Virus record (IMG/VR): IMGVR_UViG_2698536369_000018
Length of the DNA stretch: 5,179 nt
Reading direction: 5' to 3' (one strand)
From: a virus
Lineage: Duplodnaviria; Heunggongvirae; Uroviricota; Caudoviricetes
Numbering within the stretch: the first letter of the stretch is position 1; each line of letters starts with the position of its first letter. This document shows, piece after piece, positions 1-5,179 of the stretch. The position numbers and the translations under genes are program-made. The notes under the pieces were generated by a model, which saw nothing but the letters and a program-made list of their open reading frames with translations, had not been told where the DNA came from and ran no database searches.

Positions 1-281
1 GGGTTATCGCTCGCCACGGGAATATCTACGGCAGCAAGCCAGTAATGGGTTAAGTGATAACAGGTGTCTGGAAATATAGGGGCAAATCCAATCTCCTCGA
101 AATGGTCATCAATTATGTGACCACTATTCAGACAAGCTTCTTTGGCGCGCGTTAATACAGGTATAAAGTGACGATACTCAGAATAACCCAGTAGTTTCCC
201 AAGTTGTCTTGCTGACCATTGTTCTGCTCCGTTTGCATTAATCAGCTTTATCTCTTCAAAAGGTTGATGATGTTCGTTCAT
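1..281 (-). CDS. dinD: DNA damage-inducible protein D (DinD-like), 5' portion only; 93 codons in window, CDS runs off the window start
   Basis: Minus-strand ATG at 279-281 preceded by GGAG 6 nt upstream. Translation MNEHHQPFEEIKLINANGAEQWSARQLGKLLGYSEYRHFIPVLTRAKEACLNSGHIIDDHFEEI... matches the DinD N-terminus as I recall it (from memory, no search). Frame stays open to position 1. A second in-frame ATG lies 12 nt further upstream (291-293). Confidence 0.7.
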   Translation of the reverse strand, partial: MNEHHQPFEEIKLINANGAEQWSARQLGKLLGYSEYRHFIPVLTRAKEACLNSGHIIDDHFEEIGFAPIFPDTCYHLTHYWLAAVDIPVASDN

Positions 282-344: not shown

Positions 345-578
345 GTGAGTATCTCACGTTCTCAGTGTGCTGGGCAAAAAGACATCGCAAAATCTGGAGC
401 AGGCACGCAAAACAGAATTGAATGTTGCGGGGAAGAAAAATGCCGCTCTGTTTGAGTGGGCGGCATTTGTGAAGGCTGAAAAGTAAGAATTGGCGTTACG
501 AGTTATTCTTGAATCTGTTTGTAGAGTATTGGCCTCAATGCCGCATTGTAGCTGATTTTTTTCTAATGCGTTTTTTGA

Positions 579-600
579 TTATGTACACCCTTATGTACAC
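579..600 (+). promoter_or_regulatory. Two direct copies of TTATGTACAC (12-bp period), each containing the palindrome TGTACA; candidate operator
   Basis: TTATGTACACCC / TTATGTACACGT at 579-590 and 591-602, flanked by T-runs at 556-562, 571-576 and 602-608, immediately upstream of the ORF at 631. No protein can be assigned to it from sequence. Confidence 0.25.
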
Positions 601-630
601 GTTTTTTTAAAGCGTTCAGCAATTACGCTG

Positions 631-891
631 GTGGATGATCACGGATGGCCTGATATCTACAGCCGCCTTAAAAAGCTGGACCCGACAAGCATTACTGCGT
701 ATCGGGTTCGTTCGCTCTTTCTACTCGTGGCAGATGAGTTTATTGGTGTGATTTTATCGGGCGAGGGTATTGTATCAGGCATCCCCTTTTCTATGCAGAT
801 TTGCATAGTTCCGAATGGTGGCGTTATGGAAGCCTCCCATATCAGCATCATGCCCACCAGCGTGAAGTATTTTTTTATTTCGCGGGTGTAA
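631..891 (+). CDS. Hypothetical small protein (86 aa), weakly supported
   Basis: ATG-initiated ORF from the six-frame track. No convincing Shine-Dalgarno (GGTGG directly abuts the ATG) and no recognisable motifs; codon usage is plausible. It could be a chance ORF in an intergenic region. Confidence 0.25.
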   Translation: MDDHGWPDIYSRLKKLDPTSITAYRVRSLFLLVADEFIGVILSGEGIVSGIPFSMQICIVPNGGVMEASHISIMPTSVKYFFISRV

Positions 892-932
892 AAATTTGAC
901 TAGGCGGGCGGTCCCATAAGCAATGGATTGTA

Positions 933-946
933 GGGATTTCGATCCC
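933..946. other. Short perfect hairpin GGGAT-TTCG-ATCCC
   Basis: 5-bp stem with a TTCG tetraloop, followed by a C-run. It does not fold into a canonical tRNA T-arm (5-bp stem with 7-nt loop) on either strand. Confidence 0.3.
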
Positions 947-967
947 CCCTCCTGAATGCAATTTTTC

Positions 968-979
968 GTATATATATAC
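968..979. repeat. 12-bp perfect palindrome GTATATATATAC containing (TA)5
   Basis: Read directly; it lies 8 bp upstream of the 9-mer repeat block. Confidence 0.6.
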
Positions 980-987
980 AAAACAGT

Positions 988-1013
988 GCGGGTTATGCGG
1001 GTTACCGGGTTAT
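988..1013. repeat. Three tandem direct repeats of a 9-bp motif GCGGGTTAY
   Basis: GCGGGTTAT (988-996), GCGGGTTAC (997-1005) and CGGGTTAT (1006-1013), read directly. Confidence 0.8.
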
Positions 1014-1088
1014 CTTAGCGTGCTAACTATTTTTTGTTCTTTAGTATCAATATGTTGAAAAATGCACTGTTCATTATTCAAGCATCGC

Positions 1089-1151
1089 ATAACCCGCAAA
1101 ACATCCCAAATAACCCGCAAACGCCCCAAAATAACCCGCAAACACATTGCT
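1089..1151. repeat. Three tandem 21-bp repeats, each beginning ATAACCCGCAAA (iteron-like)
   Basis: ATAACCCGCAAAACATCCCAA (1089-1109), ATAACCCGCAAACGCCCCAAA (1110-1130), ATAACCCGCAAACACATTGCT (1131-1151). The period is exactly 21 bp (two helical turns). The conserved core ATAACCCGC is the reverse complement of the GCGGGTTAT repeats at 988-1013, so the two blocks form an inverted pair across a 75-bp AT-rich spacer. Confidence 0.8.
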
Positions 1152-1751
1152 GAAAGCTGGGGTGGATAGTTCCACTGGTGCCACAGAACGGCTGAATACG
1201 GTAACTGTTGCTGGTGGTCTGTCCTGTTGTCGTTCCAGTCTCATCAAATTGAGAGGCAAGACAAAGTGCATTTTTGCACTATAGCCAAAGCCTCATAAAA
1301 CAGAGTTACCCCCACAGGTTGGCAAACCATTACCCAACGCAATTAAGTGCGTCAGAATCGATTACAGCGCGTTCCTGTGGCACATTGTTGCCGTTCTCAA
1401 CAGTGAAAGGAGAGCGTAAAAAGCGCATATCTATTACTGTTGAGGGGTGTAGCGGCATATATCGCGCATATCCACGCCGTTAATCCCGATACCGTCACTG
1501 CGCATTGAGATCCACCAGAAGATTAAGATAGTTTTACCTGAAATTATCCAAATAATTGTTTTAACTGATTAATTTTTCGAATATCTATTGTTAGGGAATA
1601 AATCATCAGATACACCATAAAACGACATCTTTCAGGGTGTAGAAGATGCAAAGCCGGTACTGAAGAAAAGACAAAGAATATGAATGGCTGGCCACACGAT
1701 GGAAGGATTGTCCATTGAAGGATCAATCCCCATGGTATAAGTATTAATAAA

Positions 1752-1796
1752 ACCGCGCAGCGGGCTTTTTTATCTGCGGTTTCCCGCCCGGGCGGC
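1752..1796. other. GC-rich hairpin cluster with T-runs on both strands; possible secondary or bidirectional terminator
   Basis: CCGCGCAG (1753-1760) pairs with CTGCGG (1774-1779) with one bulge. A small CCGC-GCA-GCGG hairpin (1753-1763) is followed by T6 on the plus strand (1766-1771), and TTTTATT follows on the minus strand. A 12-bp perfect palindrome CCGCCCGGGCGG lies at 1784-1795. Confidence 0.4.
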
Positions 1797-1809
1797 GGTG
1801 GCATTCGTT

Positions 1810-1836
1810 AAAAACAAGGCCGCGAAAGCGGCCTTG
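1810..1836 (-). terminator. Rho-independent terminator of the minus-strand operon
   Basis: On the minus strand: CAAGGCCGC-TTTC-GCGGCCTTG (9-bp perfect GC-rich stem, 4-nt loop) immediately followed by TTTTTAA. It begins 8 nt after the stop codon of the 104-aa ORF. Confidence 0.8.
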
Positions 1837-1843
1837 TGACATG

Positions 1844-2158
1844 TCACGATAGTTCCGTTTTGTTGAATTCAATTATATCAAGGTCAGAACTTTCGTAATC
1901 CTTACCGAATAAAGCAAAACATATCGCGTCAAGTTCTCTCTTATGTTTGGACGCCCGATCATAATTACCACCCCAACAGCAAATGAATCCACCAAGTACT
2001 GCTGATTCAAAAAGTAATGATGCTGCATCAATATGTCTGAACCAGGAGTCTATAAGTAAAGCAGAGAGTGATATTAATGTTCCCCACCCGCCAATCCTTC
2101 TCCATTTCTCAGCTTCATATTTAAGAGAAGCAATATATTCAATTTTATCTCTCGTCAT
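1844..2158 (-). CDS. Small putative membrane protein (104 aa), AT-rich and rare-codon-rich; last gene of the operon
   Basis: Its ATG overlaps the stop of the upstream 918-aa ORF (minus strand reads TGATG, sharing one base). Two hydrophobic segments (IGGWGTLISLSALLIDSWF and AASLLFESAVLGGFICCWGG). Codon usage is atypical for its neighbour: 4 AGA, 1 AGG and 4 ATA codons in 104. No family recognised. Confidence 0.6.
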   Translation of the reverse strand: MTRDKIEYIASLKYEAEKWRRIGGWGTLISLSALLIDSWFRHIDAASLLFESAVLGGFICCWGGNYDRASKHKRELDAICFALFGKDYESSDLDIIEFNKTELS

Positions 2159-4914
2159 CAGTTCCCCACCGCCTTTCCAAAATCCGGTGCTCTACGTGGC
2201 GCAATAGCACCCGGTTCCCACCAACTCGTTATGTCGAACTCCCGTTGCGCGCGGTCCCTTACTCGATCATTGTAACCAGGGTTTGCCATCTCCTGAAGTT
2301 GTTGCAATATCAGGTGATTGGTTATCGCTTTCGCATACCACAGGTTTGCGAATGGGGTGATCATGCGGGCTGTTTTCAGTGCATCGGCACCGAATGATGT
2401 TTCTTCACCCTGTATAGCCTTCTGTGGGTTAGTAATCAGTAATTTTGTTAACTGCTCTGCAAAGCTCAACACAGGGCCACCCATAGTGGCACCGATGCTG
2501 GAGCCATATTGCGTATGGTCCTGGAAAATAAAATCACCGTAGATACCGAACGAACCACCTTTCAGTAGAGCCTGAACCCATGTGGTTGGTTTTGTCATAT
2601 CCAGCGGGTCATTACCATTTAACAAACTGTTCATCTGGATCGCAAACATACCAGCAAGAGTTGTTCCCCCGATATATGAGGCCAGAAATTTAATGGCCGG
2701 AACGGTGTCCAAATCCCGTGTTCTGTTAACAAGTTGCCGAAATCCAGCAAATGGGGTTGTTTTGAAGAGCATGAAGCTCTTCATTAACTCGCCAGCATCA
2801 TCACGGGCATATGTATCAATACCCGTAGCGGTGGTCACAGCATTGGTCATCTCACCGTGCGTAATTCCCAGCAATTTCTGGGCTGCTTCAGCGCGTGCAT
2901 TACGAATCATGCGCATGATGGTCTGCTCAGCCTCAGCGTCGAATGCTTCTTTCATCCGTTTCTGGCGTTCTGGAGGGAGATCACCAAGGGCTGCCAGTGC
3001 CTTTTCACTCCCGGCACGAATCCGGGCAATACGGTCTGCCATAATGTCGGCGATTACGTTATCGGGCACAGCGTAAATCGCGTCTGGCGTCATCCCCATA
3101 TGCCCGGCTGTAGTCATCGGCCTGAGTTCTGCCGCTGCCATGATGGCCCAGTCCTCATTGCTCCATCCCTTGTTAGCCAGAATGGTTTTATCGGTTCCTT
3201 TTATATCGTCCAGCGTCTTAAATTTTCTGGTCAGCTCGCCAATGTTTTTGTACATCAGGAGACCAAACGACGCTTTGTTTGCGCGGTCCATAGCGATCAG
3301 CCCGGACCACTTCAGTGTCTTCTCTGCGAACCAGCCAGTTATGCCGCGAGACAAGTCAAACCCACCCATTTTCGAAACCACAGCAGCATGTGAATCCACC
3401 AGCAGACCGAGTTCAGCATTCGCCTTTTTGGCATCTCCACTAAACAGGTTTTTGATAGTGTTAACGGAAAGCCGCATTCCACCACGGGTAAAGCCCAGCG
3501 CCTGCGCATTTGCCCGCATAATGGCCTGGTCGCTGGTTGCTGTCAGTACGCTGGTGCCAAGCATGGCGCTGGTCATCAGGTTACGCAGACCACCAACTGC
3601 TGAAGAGAACACACTCGATGAAGCGACACCATTTAGGCCAGCCATTGAGTTGAACATACGGGCAACTAATTTGGCCTCATCCTCCATTTCTTTTTTGCGT
3701 TTCCCGCCTGTTACTGCGCGCTTATAGATGCGATCCAGTACCAGGGAAAAGTTTCTTTCGGCGTCCGGACCAAAGGCTTTAACGACGCCCAAATCCCTGG
3801 ATGATGATTGCAGGTGCGACATCATCACCCCCACCAGCGGCTGCTGAGTGTATCGCTCCATATAGGCGAAGTGTGACTGCGCATCCTTGAACGCCATCAC
3901 CCTGTGCTGAGAACCACGGCTCTTTATTCCTCCGGCTCCCATAAATGTACCAGGCTCAATTTTGTTTGCCCCATCAGTGGCCTTCGTTTCAAAGATCGCT
4001 TCCAGTGCCTGACGGTACTCAACGTCATTCATAATGCTGCCATCAGGATTAACGTAATTGCTGCGATCCTGCGTGTTGTAAACGTCATCAACCCATGCCT
4101 GGCGGGCAAACTCAATCGGTGGCTGGCGACCTGAAAGACGTGCTGTAGCTTGTTCTGTCACTGGTAACGATGCCAGCCATTCTTCGCGCCCGGCATTGCG
4201 AATAAGGTCAGCATCATCCACATATGGCATATTCCAGTCGTCTCGCTGGCCTATGTCAAAGCCGTTGTCGTTCATCTCATGGCGAACACGGCTTGTTACA
4301 TCCTTCCAAATCTGTGCAATTTTCTTCGCCAGTGGATTCCCGGTATCTTCGCCGTAAATCTCTTTAAGGATCTGGAGTTGTGCAGACTTTGCCGCCTGCC
4401 TGTCGAATACACTCCGAAACCGCTGCTCTCCAAGCGCCCTGCTCTGCTCGAAGAATTTGCGGACGTCATCACCTGCTTTTAGAAGTTCAGCACTGAGCTG
4501 ACGGGACCAGTCCTGATATGCCCCAATTGCAAGCTCTTCAGCAGAAGTAACGGAGATATCAGCTTTGTCTCTCGATCGTCGGCCAGCAAAAATAAACTGC
4601 TGCAAATTAACAGGTGTCTGCTGATCAGGCGGGATGTTAGCATCGAGAGTGTCAATAATTTTACTGATGGCGATCGCATTGTGGGCAACACGCTGTCTTT
4701 TCTTGTACACATCATGAACCACACGCTGGCGTACCAGTTCTGCTGCATCCATGTATGTTTGAGCATCAGGAATACCACTTTTTCCTTCTTTTGCATTCTT
4801 TCTGTGCACATGCTGCACAGCTTCTTTGATACGATCTTCAATATTTTTCAGCTCATCAGCCTTTGGCTGGCGACCAAGTGTCTGCGCAATAGCTTCAACA
4901 CATGCCTGTTTCAT
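2158..4914 (-). CDS. Large hypothetical protein (918 aa from the ATG at 4914; the track's 925-aa version starts at a GTG at 4935); function unknown
   Basis: Longest ORF in the window with codon usage typical of enterobacterial genes. The ATG at 4912-4914 is preceded by GAGGAA 6 nt upstream and overlaps the TAA of the upstream 53-aa ORF (TAATG). I see no Walker A/B, HNH, DDE or other catalytic signature by eye. It has a K/E/R-rich helical N-terminal third and a central Gly/Ala/Ser/Thr/Met-rich stretch (NSMAGLNGVASSSVFSSAVGGLRNLMTSAMLGTSVLTATSDQAIMRANAQALGF...). Confidence 0.85.
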   Translation of the reverse strand: MKQACVEAIAQTLGRQPKADELKNIEDRIKEAVQHVHRKNAKEGKSGIPDAQTYMDAAELVRQRVVHDVYKKRQRVAHNAIAISKIIDTLDANIPPDQQTPVNLQQFIFAGRRSRDKADISVTSAEELAIGAYQDWSRQLSAELLKAGDDVRKFFEQSRALGEQRFRSVFDRQAAKSAQLQILKEIYGEDTGNPLAKKIAQIWKDVTSRVRHEMNDNGFDIGQRDDWNMPYVDDADLIRNAGREEWLASLPVTEQATARLSGRQPPIEFARQAWVDDVYNTQDRSNYVNPDGSIMNDVEYRQALEAIFETKATDGANKIEPGTFMGAGGIKSRGSQHRVMAFKDAQSHFAYMERYTQQPLVGVMMSHLQSSSRDLGVVKAFGPDAERNFSLVLDRIYKRAVTGGKRKKEMEDEAKLVARMFNSMAGLNGVASSSVFSSAVGGLRNLMTSAMLGTSVLTATSDQAIMRANAQALGFTRGGMRLSVNTIKNLFSGDAKKANAELGLLVDSHAAVVSKMGGFDLSRGITGWFAEKTLKWSGLIAMDRANKASFGLLMYKNIGELTRKFKTLDDIKGTDKTILANKGWSNEDWAIMAAAELRPMTTAGHMGMTPDAIYAVPDNVIADIMADRIARIRAGSEKALAALGDLPPERQKRMKEAFDAEAEQTIMRMIRNARAEAAQKLLGITHGEMTNAVTTATGIDTYARDDAGELMKSFMLFKTTPFAGFRQLVNRTRDLDTVPAIKFLASYIGGTTLAGMFAIQMNSLLNGNDPLDMTKPTTWVQALLKGGSFGIYGDFIFQDHTQYGSSIGATMGGPVLSFAEQLTKLLITNPQKAIQGEETSFGADALKTARMITPFANLWYAKAITNHLILQQLQEMANPGYNDRVRDRAQREFDITSWWEPGAIAPRRAPDFGKAVGN

Positions 4915-5075
4915 TATGGGTTCCTCAAGAAGCACGCTGCCGCTACAGAATAAACCTTCGATTCGTTCTGGACTGTCTTAATCTGTTCATCCAACTCAGC
5001 CAGGAGATCAGAAAGTTTTGTCGGGTTTCCGGTTTCCGGGTGAGCTATAGTCAGCTCAGGATTGGCAACAGCCAT
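4914..5075 (-). CDS. Small hypothetical protein (53 aa) translationally coupled to the large ORF
   Basis: ATG at 5073-5075 with a G-rich stretch (GGGGCGG) about 8 nt upstream; translation MAVANPELTIAHPETGNPTKLSDLLAELDEQIKTVQNESKVYSVAAACFLRNP. Its TAA (4914-4916) overlaps the ATG of the 918-aa ORF. It is below the size cutoff of the supplied ORF track, so this is my own reading. Confidence 0.45.
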   Translation of the reverse strand: MAVANPELTIAHPETGNPTKLSDLLAELDEQIKTVQNESKVYSVAAACFLRNP

Positions 5076-5119
5076 GTTGAACCGCCCCGGGTTTCCTGGA
5101 GAGTGTTTTATCTGTGAAC

Positions 5120-5179
5120 TCAGGCTGCCAGATCATCGTTGCCGATGGAAGCATAATAAGCTTTTTCTGCTTCTGCCGG
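5120..5179 (-). CDS. 3' end of an upstream minus-strand gene (last 19 codons plus stop); partial
   Basis: This frame is open from the window edge and reads ...PAEAEKAYYASIGNDDLAA then TGA at 5120-5122, with typical high-usage codons. A second frame is also open from the edge and ends at 5056-5058 but uses rarer codons (CGG, AGG, CTT), so frame assignment is uncertain. Confidence 0.3.
   Translation of the reverse strand, partial: PAEAEKAYYASIGNDDLAA

Follow-up and report, generated by a model that had tools for sequence, protein, structure and literature searches.

An epsilon15 gp17-type internal virion protein gene in a PICI-like island of Escherichia coli that may be a satellite of Uetakeviruses

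We analysed a 5,179-nucleotide stretch of DNA (IMG/VR virus record IMGVR_UViG_2698536369_000018; hereafter the window) that carries an open reading frame (ORF) encoding a 918-aa protein. This protein is an intact orthologue of epsilon15 gp17 and phiV10 gp20, the largest internal virion protein of the Uetakevirus podophages. In complete Escherichia coli genomes, the window matches the segment between dinD and yicC, where the 918-aa gene is the third of a cassette of three genes that encode 843-, 686- and 918-aa proteins (gp15-, gp16- and gp17-like). The cassette belongs to an island of ~19-20 kb that resembles a phage-inducible chromosomal island (PICI) and contains no structural genes outside the cassette. 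We lean towards the interpretation, with a function inferred rather than shown, that the island is a satellite of Uetakeviruses, similar to PICIs, and brings ejection proteins of its own. There is nothing unusual about the 918-aa protein as a member of its family, which is known but poorly understood; the interest lies in the island context. This oddity of context, a PICI-like island with a cassette cut by an insertion sequence (IS), was not visible from the letters of the window to the reader who wrote a preliminary description of this DNA.

The family of the 918-aa protein was identified by profile and pairwise comparisons. The protein matched PHROG 684 ('virion structural protein') over residues 1-916 (E 1e-295), and its pairwise alignment with Salmonella phage epsilon15 gp17 was free of gaps, with 815 of 917 residues identical (89%). 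Searching phage genomes by tblastn gave 88.9% identity to epsilon15 gp17 over the full length and ~26% identity to the phiV10/SPN1S group, with further matches in many Vibrio, Pelagibacter, Pseudomonas, Yersinia and other podophage-like records. Across the Proteobacteria, 120 loci of the family were confirmed in species-representative genomes. Pfam and NCBIfam scans gave no match for the 918-aa protein or for the gp15-like and gp16-like island proteins. Since full-length homologues occur in many phages and the ratio of non-synonymous to synonymous substitution rates (dN/dS) was 0.02-0.28 in all comparisons, the ORF is not a chance frame.

An AlphaFold model of the 918-aa protein, built with 29 homologues, was all-alpha with ~40 helices and of medium confidence (pLDDT 62.9, pTM 0.64; low at residues 428-545 and 693-918). 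A Foldseek search of BFVD, in which predicted models are compared with predicted models, matched it to the 'internal virion protein' of Vibrio phage VP2 (E 3e-21, TM 0.57-0.66) and, more distantly, to proteins named 'internal virion protein D', 'internal core protein' and 'protein inside capsid D' (E 1e-7 to 1e-5, TM 0.35-0.45) from phages such as LKA1, RSB3 and Xylella phage Cota. Foldseek against the PDB matched no solved structure (best E 0.13, TM <0.15). The PDB contains T7 gp15 and gp16; phmmer and a 29-sequence family profile found no match among PDB chain sequences, in which the presence of T7 gp16 chains was unchecked.

These results decide between the two kinds of phage protein that the preliminary description had named on composition, a tail tape-measure protein and an ejection (internal virion) protein. 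The PHROG 684 match, the identity to epsilon15 gp17, the predicted-fold matches and the podophage gene order indicate that the ejection-protein reading is right and the tape-measure reading wrong; the remote homology search that had been proposed thus led to a phage structural family. Size and a helical, Ala/Gly-rich composition speak for a tape-measure protein, and nothing else does. No tape-measure family was matched, the sole tape-measure protein in the BFVD search had a probability of 0.28 and a TM of 0.08, and the AlphaFold model showed ~40 short helices and no single long coiled coil. The orthologues belong to short-tailed phages with T7-like gp11/gp12 tail genes. Orthology to epsilon15 gp17 rules this candidate out, and we give it practically no weight.

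The composition described earlier was borne out by counting, although it is not extreme. Charged residues made up 24-36% over the first ~300 residues, and Gly, Ala, Ser, Thr and Met together made up 42-50% at residues 401-550, 601-700 and 801-850; over the whole protein, Ala was 12.1% and Gly 7.7%. The transmembrane prediction proposed for the central segment returned no canonical helix in the 918-aa protein: the highest 19-residue Kyte-Doolittle mean was 1.34 (residues 741-759), within a moderately hydrophobic helix at 737-765, and Gly-rich invariant motifs lie at 755-814. The ORF starts with ATG; an in-frame GTG upstream at 4935 would give 925 aa (7 extra codons).

The neighbours of the 918-aa gene in the island correspond to those of its phage orthologues. 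The 843-aa protein is 78% identical to epsilon15 gp15, and both ends of the 686-aa protein match epsilon15 gp16 (74-83% identity), whereas its middle is replaced. The start and stop codons within the cassette overlap in epsilon15 and at the 918-aa gene alike, and the gp15-gp16-gp17 order is unbroken in the sister copies L001, L003 and L093-L098. In epsilon15 and phiV10, homologues of T7 gp11, gp12, gp13 and gp14 (the last labelled 'virion core protein, T7 gp14 family' in RefSeq) are followed by gp15, which has a transglycosylase-like region, gp16 and the homologue of the 918-aa protein. These podovirus surroundings (gp11-gp14 upstream, the tailspike downstream) are absent at the island, where the 68-aa, PerC, ProQ, SSB (single-stranded DNA-binding protein) and primase genes lie upstream, and the attachment (att) site and dinD lie downstream.

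The middle of the gp16-like protein of L001 (24828-26888), a stretch of ~200 aa at residues ~277-480, is unrelated to epsilon15 gp16 and has no Pfam match. Among close relatives, gp16 ranges from 521 to 686 aa, and the stretch is a variable insert in a protein of the ejected kind.

The small AT-rich gene and the terminator seen downstream in the preliminary description are both present, a 104-aa ORF with a GC content of 37.8% (50.4% in the 918-aa gene) and a hairpin that was overlooked by a terminator scan and confirmed by folding. Its view that this context was unexpected, with no tail-tip genes and no frameshift chaperone, did not hold, since neither would be expected in a podovirus. A small gene and a terminator are what should follow the 918-aa gene, because they are native there: in epsilon15, the 64-aa gp18 and a rho-independent terminator come after gp17, and in phiV10 the homologue has a gene for a 46-aa membrane protein and then a terminator behind it. 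About 90 bp at the hairpin are 94-97% identical to the phiV10/TL-2011b region that contains the phage terminator. Its suggestion of a 'repurposed or orphaned' phage protein fits the wider neighbourhood, which lacks capsid, tail and terminase genes, and not the local downstream context, which is native.

The 104-aa ORF had no Pfam, PHROG or NCBIfam match, no tblastn match in phages and no similarity to epsilon15 gp18; it is annotated as WP_000196352.1 in the islands examined that have this gene. In the island of E. coli ExPEC XM (L089 3054-3357), the 918-aa gene is followed by WP_023151891.1, another small gene in place of the 104-aa ORF. As the 104-aa ORF is replaced in this way in some of the islands that have the identical 918-aa gene, what follows the cassette varies.

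By position, as the last and largest gene of an internal-protein cluster, the 918-aa gene resembles T7 gp16 (internal virion protein D) of the gp14-gp15-gp16 ejectosome, and its product would work in a similar way. The two systems differ in that the transglycosylase is at the N-terminus of T7 gp16 and here on the gp15-like protein (residues ~244-364), with no lytic transglycosylase domain found at the N-terminus of the 918-aa protein in Pfam and PHROG scans, and in that the cassette encodes three large proteins and T7 two. As for hydrophobic helices near the C-terminus that might insert into a membrane, the 918-aa protein has the one moderately hydrophobic helix at 737-765. Membership in the T7 gp16 family itself is not established, as sequence similarity went undetected and the transglycosylase domain is on the other protein. 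Mass spectrometry of epsilon15 virions reportedly found gp17 present. A secondary citation for gp17 in epsilon15 virions is given in PMC12391199, and background on T7-type ejectosomes in PMC8954989. Table 1 of PMC8954989 has an 'Epsilon 15' row in which the ejection proteins are gp11 (229 aa), gp12 (499 aa) and gp13 (708 aa); this conflicts with the epsilon15 record (gp11 201, gp12 825 and gp13 154 aa) and looks P22-like, and the row was left unused.

The backbone of the island is of the satellite type. Upstream of the cassette lie, in order, the 68-aa gene, a PerC-family gene, a 138-aa gene, ProQ/FinO and SSB genes, a DUF927 primase gene and a DUF4222 gene, an Icd-like gene, Bro-N, GIY-YIG and Rha genes, an AlpA-family helix-turn-helix gene and a tyrosine integrase gene; regulators of the Rha/Ant/Bro kind are thus among the backbone genes. 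The Phage_AlpA match scored 26.4 bits against a cut-off of 21, the primase belongs to DUF927/PHROG 1139, and integrase domains were detected. No capsid, portal, terminase, tail or lysis gene was found in the island loci examined. The ends of the island are marked by att repeats; at this site the repeat is a ~22-bp copy of the yicC 3' end. The sister island at tRNA-Gly/actS has instead a 19-bp repeat that copies the 3' end of the tRNA and delimits 19.1-19.5 kb. Genomes with an empty site align to the window only up to ~508, the stretch overlapping yicC. A boundary at window 584-626 (a 12-bp repeat and the end of homology to L003) was considered and replaced by ~503-524 after the empty-site comparison.

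Islands that occupy a different site and carry a different cassette match window positions 626-1843, between the att site and the cassette, at 97-99% identity. An iteron, ATAACCCGCAAA, is present in all island loci and in a classic PICI and has no copy in the phage loci; besides the three direct copies of the array, a fourth is located between the primase gene and the SSB gene. Outside the window the motif was noted at L001 31526-31537 and L007 17753-17786. The origin-like array in the window, with three inverted and three direct iterons, lies in conserved non-coding backbone and could be the replication origin or a packaging site of the island. The classic PICI, ~10 kb at cspD/clpS, has the DUF4222, primase and SSB genes, the same 68-aa gene and the iteron motif in common with the island, and in it a protease/major-capsid fusion gene and a DUF1441 gene come after the 68-aa gene.

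Enterobacterial PICIs and cf-PICIs are among the known systems closest to the island. They resemble it in the integrase, AlpA and primase core, the att repeats, the iterons, the small size and the lack of lysis and tail genes. The island differs from them in being larger than typical, at 19-20 kb, and in carrying an ejection-protein cassette in the slot normally held by a capsid-morphogenesis or packaging gene. No terminase-small-subunit or Rpp-type gene was found in the island, which has three virion-protein genes instead. SatelliteFinder requires a capsid-morphogenesis or packaging gene for its Types A and B, and its 'Type C' PICIs, defined by integrase, AlpA and primase, comprise more than 6000 elements that were set aside as possibly undescribed satellite families (PMC10085698). 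With its three core genes, the island would be 'Type C' only.

The backbone bears directly on whether the island arose from an epsilon15-like prophage by deletion of the head and tail genes. SatelliteFinder reportedly mistakes intact Uetakevirus prophages for PICIs (PMC10121019), and PerC-family and Bro-N genes occur in both the island and Uetakevirus prophages. The island primase, however, has no homologue in any Uetakevirus, its matches including satellite-sized records (10-17 kb) such as PT1028, vB_KppS-Ant and Pmp8, and megablast confined nucleotide similarity to phages to the cassette region. Uetakevirus prophages instead have another replication and recombination set (DnaT-like, replication protein P and RecT/exonuclease), and the backbone, iterons and 68-aa gene also occur in the classic PICI. 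A deletion remnant is thus largely refuted, and we regard it as highly improbable.

Two backbone genes showed features of their own. The PerC-family gene upstream of the cassette (L001 29854-30079) is annotated as frameshifted in every island examined (L001, L003, L005, L006 and L088), and the PerC-family gene of Uetakevirus prophages is intact (L171 14851-15150). The shared regulator family may link the expression of island and helper, or the frameshift may be an annotation artefact. The 138-aa protein (L001 30088-30504) had weak PHROG matches to an anti-repressor (E 2e-26) and, in its N-terminal part, to a 'terminase' family (E 2e-10); it is the sole island gene with any hint of packaging.

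One backbone was found with one slot and three cassette alleles at three chromosomal sites. The epsilon15-type cassette (843/686/918 aa) occupies yicC-dinD and tRNA-Gly/actS, the phiV10-type cassette (837/600/824 aa) tRNA-Gly/actS, and a third type (873/565/849 aa, plus 186) dadX; the third protein belongs to PHROG 684 in all three. The phiV10-type island copy of strain F11 is identical to phiV10 gp20 at 817 of 824 residues (99%). phiV10 gp20 (YP_512274) is of the same PHROG and stands last in a cassette of the same order (gp18-gp19-gp20), and the window protein, of the epsilon15-type allele, is only ~26% identical to it. The closest counterpart, epsilon15 gp17 (NP_848225, 'virion structural protein'), is like the 918-aa protein in length and in its place after gp15-like and gp16-like genes; it differs in being encoded by a 39.7-kb phage and followed by gp18, whereas the 918-aa gene lies in a satellite-like island and is followed by the unrelated 104-aa ORF.

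The junction between the 68-aa gene and the gp15-like gene was present in 45 of 5426 complete E. coli genomes, and the epsilon15-type cassette was present at 97-100% identity in 37 complete genomes, with its 7.3 kb (~40% of the island) intact. gp17 genes at 77-81% identity were found in 17 further genomes, one of which was opened (L004) and proved to be a complete Uetakevirus prophage; close homologues from other genera were all in full prophage context. The exact 918-aa protein occurred in 170 blocks of an assembly index, and the six places examined all had an intact cassette adjoining dinD. Within IMG/VR, no contig with an island-type copy exceeded 20 kb (one measured 19,987 bp), and phage-type copies were mostly in contigs of ~39-41 kb.

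We also considered that the cassette might serve defence or superinfection exclusion, its proteins being made from the integrated island and sitting in the envelope to block podophage DNA entry. Anti-phage cargo is frequent in satellites (PMC10121019). The cassette, however, lies in the morphogenesis slot, and PICI defence cargo has been reported between att and the integrase (PMC10085698); the alleles track phage alleles up to 99%, which would be unexpected for a decoy; and nothing pointed to expression from the resting island. We consider defence quite improbable.

The selection acting on the gene was estimated from six island copies and five phage or prophage copies, all aligned at full length. 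Among the island copies dN/dS was 0.05-0.28 (6-28 synonymous and 2-22 non-synonymous differences), and among the phage and prophage copies it was 0.02-0.03; between island and phage copies it was ~0.045, with dS saturated at ~1.2-1.5. The island gene is constrained by purifying selection, less tightly than the phage copies. That dN/dS is higher in the island than in phages, and that dN between island and phage copies is 2-4 times dN among phages, fits some relaxation of constraint. This relaxation, together with IS insertions in several island copies, this window included, is a point against the satellite reading.

The same two observations speak for the cassette being passenger DNA, gained by recombination between a satellite and a co-resident Uetakevirus and carried without function, in which case the gene would literally be 'orphaned'. 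Phage homology also flanks the cassette, with ~57 nt of the gp14 3' end on one side and the ~90 bp at the terminator on the other. Against it stand the 7.3 kb kept intact at 97-100% identity, the three independent alleles in one slot and a dN/dS well below 1 among island copies. The dS of ~1.2-1.5 also indicates that the epsilon15-type allele was not recently acquired from the prophage copies compared. That three alleles share one slot, one of them at 99% identity to phiV10, and that the cassette recurs in 41-45 of 5426 genomes, with all aligned copies full-length and constrained, is evidence against accidental cargo, and passenger DNA appears unlikely.

We examined the link to a helper phage by searching the complete genomes with a probe of 430 nt that covers the beginning of the gp15-like gene. 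The probe found 404 genomes, of which 41 were taken as island-bearing from their best records (at least 97% identity, no preceding gp14). A second gp15-like copy was present in 17 of the 41 island genomes, and any copy in 363 of the 5385 others (6.7%); the co-occurrence had an odds ratio of 9.8 (Fisher p 5e-10), a test that is not corrected for clonal relatedness. Records with two gp15-like copies numbered 24 in the whole collection. In E. coli E1, an island at tRNA-Gly/actS coexists with a complete phiV10-type Uetakevirus prophage at guaA. The allele that islands share with phiV10 is further indirect evidence of a helper.

Comparison of the two gp15-like proteins of E1, that of the island (L003 15410-17941) and that of the prophage (L171 38120-40633), showed near-identity at residues 1-510, including the transglycosylase-like region, apart from a short divergent patch at ~205-225. 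Residues 510-843 of the island protein are of the epsilon15 type and very divergent from the phiV10 type. In the island type of the window, the first ~1.5 kb of the gp15-like gene is likewise 89-96% identical in nucleotides to phiV10-like phages. Since the E1 gp15-like protein is a chimera, the gp15 C-terminal part, gp16 and gp17 travel as a module on a shared N-terminal part.

These findings suggest how such a satellite might work. Ejection proteins of the epsilon15 gp17 kind would, by analogy with T7, P22 and epsilon15, be packed inside the capsid on the portal and, at infection, be ejected through the short tail and refold into a channel for DNA across the periplasm and inner membrane; the path from packing and ejection to a trans-envelope DNA channel is outlined in PMC8954989 and PMC12391199. 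The island would be a satellite of Uetakevirus helpers such as phiV10-like prophages. During assembly of helper virions, its gp15 C-terminal part-gp16-gp17 module would be incorporated by docking through the gp15 N-terminal part common to the helper, and particles with island DNA would then inject using the island's own ejection machinery. More tentatively, and with somewhat less than even weight, the islands may represent an undescribed class of satellites on short-tailed Uetakeviruses, in which an exchangeable ejectosome module (gp15 C-terminal part, gp16 and gp17) plugs into helper virions instead of capsid remodelling or packaging redirection, so that DNA delivery would be the point of satellite advantage or helper sabotage. 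The satellite could, for example, gain access to more hosts after adsorption, or evade exclusion that blocks entry.

The chimera also bears on interference, in which the cassette would be expressed during helper growth and its heterotypic ejection proteins would make helper virions non-infectious, as poison subunits in the manner of PICI-typical helper interference. In E1 the island gp15 C-terminal part, gp16 and gp17 are of another type than those of the resident prophage, with the gp15 N-terminal part in common, and in PICIs the genes found next to the replication module, in this slot, normally serve hijacking or interference (PMC10085698). An island variant with a cassette 99% identical to that of phiV10 would not, however, poison phiV10; poisoned capsids would also disable particles with island DNA; and three large genes conserved at full length go beyond the needs of dominant-negative fragments. 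We judge interference an improbable explanation.

Besides the relaxed constraint, the IS insertions and the uncorrected clonal relatedness, several further points weigh against a satellite that supplies its own ejection proteins. Twenty-four of the 41 island genomes had no second gp15-like copy, and the identity of the second copy was verified in one genome, E1. No recognisable terminase small subunit or helper pac/cos sequence was found in the island, and the megablast similarity to phages was confined to the cassette. Induction of the island, its packaging and the incorporation of its proteins are all inferred; a helper would already supply gp15-17, and the need for a second set is unexplained; and epsilon15 gp17 may be located either in the internal core or in the tail tube of the virion.

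Known satellites hijack capsid size, packaging specificity or tails. In the literature searched, itself a limited collection, we found no description of satellites or PICIs with ejection-protein cargo, and no short-tailed helper in enterobacteria was named in the satellite literature found; PMC10085698 makes no mention of ejection proteins or podoviruses. If the islands are mobilised by phiV10/epsilon15-like phages, the satellite concept would extend to enterobacterial podophages, ejection proteins would be shown to be a modular, exchangeable determinant, and the chimeric gp15 with heterotypic gp16 and gp17 in one cell would be a natural system for mapping ejection-protein interactions. The element may represent a new, and testable, way of exploiting a helper phage. 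For the 918-aa protein, the label 'hypothetical' can now give way to internal virion (ejection) protein, and prophage finders will label these 20-kb islands defective prophages.

The features of the window are listed in Table 1. Island-bearing genomes align to it from position 91 only, and all genome matches end at 5077. Both IS3-family elements at its ends have the 3' ends of their transposase genes facing the 4,987-bp segment between them. The IS1203-like transposase runs in the same direction as the cassette, and the insertion lies 163 bp upstream of the 918-aa gene, in the gp16-like gene. The IS junctions of the window were found in no complete E. coli genome of the collection. Because the 918-aa gene is still intact though cut off from the rest of the cassette, the disruption in the sampled genome is probably recent, and in this genome the intact gene has probably ceased to belong to a functional cassette.

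Table 1. Features of the 5,179-nucleotide window
Feature	Positions	Strand	Description
IS2-like IS3-family element end	1..90	+	OrfB C-terminus and terminal inverted repeat; inserted in dinD; megablast, 4033 E. coli records 'IS3 family transposase'
dinD 5' fragment, first ~63 codons	91..281	-	Annotated dinD in NZ_OZ546940; translation begins MNEHHQPFEE...; truncated by IS
Probable att core	503..524		~22-bp imperfect copy of yicC 3' end (TTATTCRATRTTCTGGATCTG in L001; window copy a shorter variant)
Origin-like array	958..1142		AT-rich palindrome 958-989; inverted iterons 987-1013; three direct ATAACCCGCAAA iterons, 21-bp spacing, 1089-1142
Terminator-like hairpin	~1814-1837	-	Intrinsic type, at the end of the cassette; GC-rich stem of 10 bp with 4-nt loop and T-run; dG on folding -21.4 kcal/mol, z -3.45; inverted repeat I15
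104-aa ORF	1844..2158	-	AT-rich (GC 0.378); two weakly hydrophobic segments; start overlaps stop of 918-aa gene
918-aa epsilon15-gp17-type internal virion protein	2158..4914	-	PHROG 684; last cassette gene
gp16-like gene remnant, last ~54 codons	4914..5077	-	PHROG 1145 C-terminus, E 2e-17; matches C-terminus of 686-aa protein and epsilon15 gp16
IS1203/IS629-like IS3-family element right end	5078..5179	-	megablast, 6211 records 'IS3-like element IS1203 family transposase'; OrfB C-terminus ...PAEAEKAYYASIGNDDLAA*

A promoter scan of the window gave 3 sites, compared with 8.3 in shuffled sequence, and an Rfam scan of the window gave no match. A 234-aa 'hypothetical protein' annotated in L001 (WP_187642373.1, 20379-21083, corresponding to window ~469-1173) spans the att junction and does not form one ORF in the window; it is probably a spurious call.

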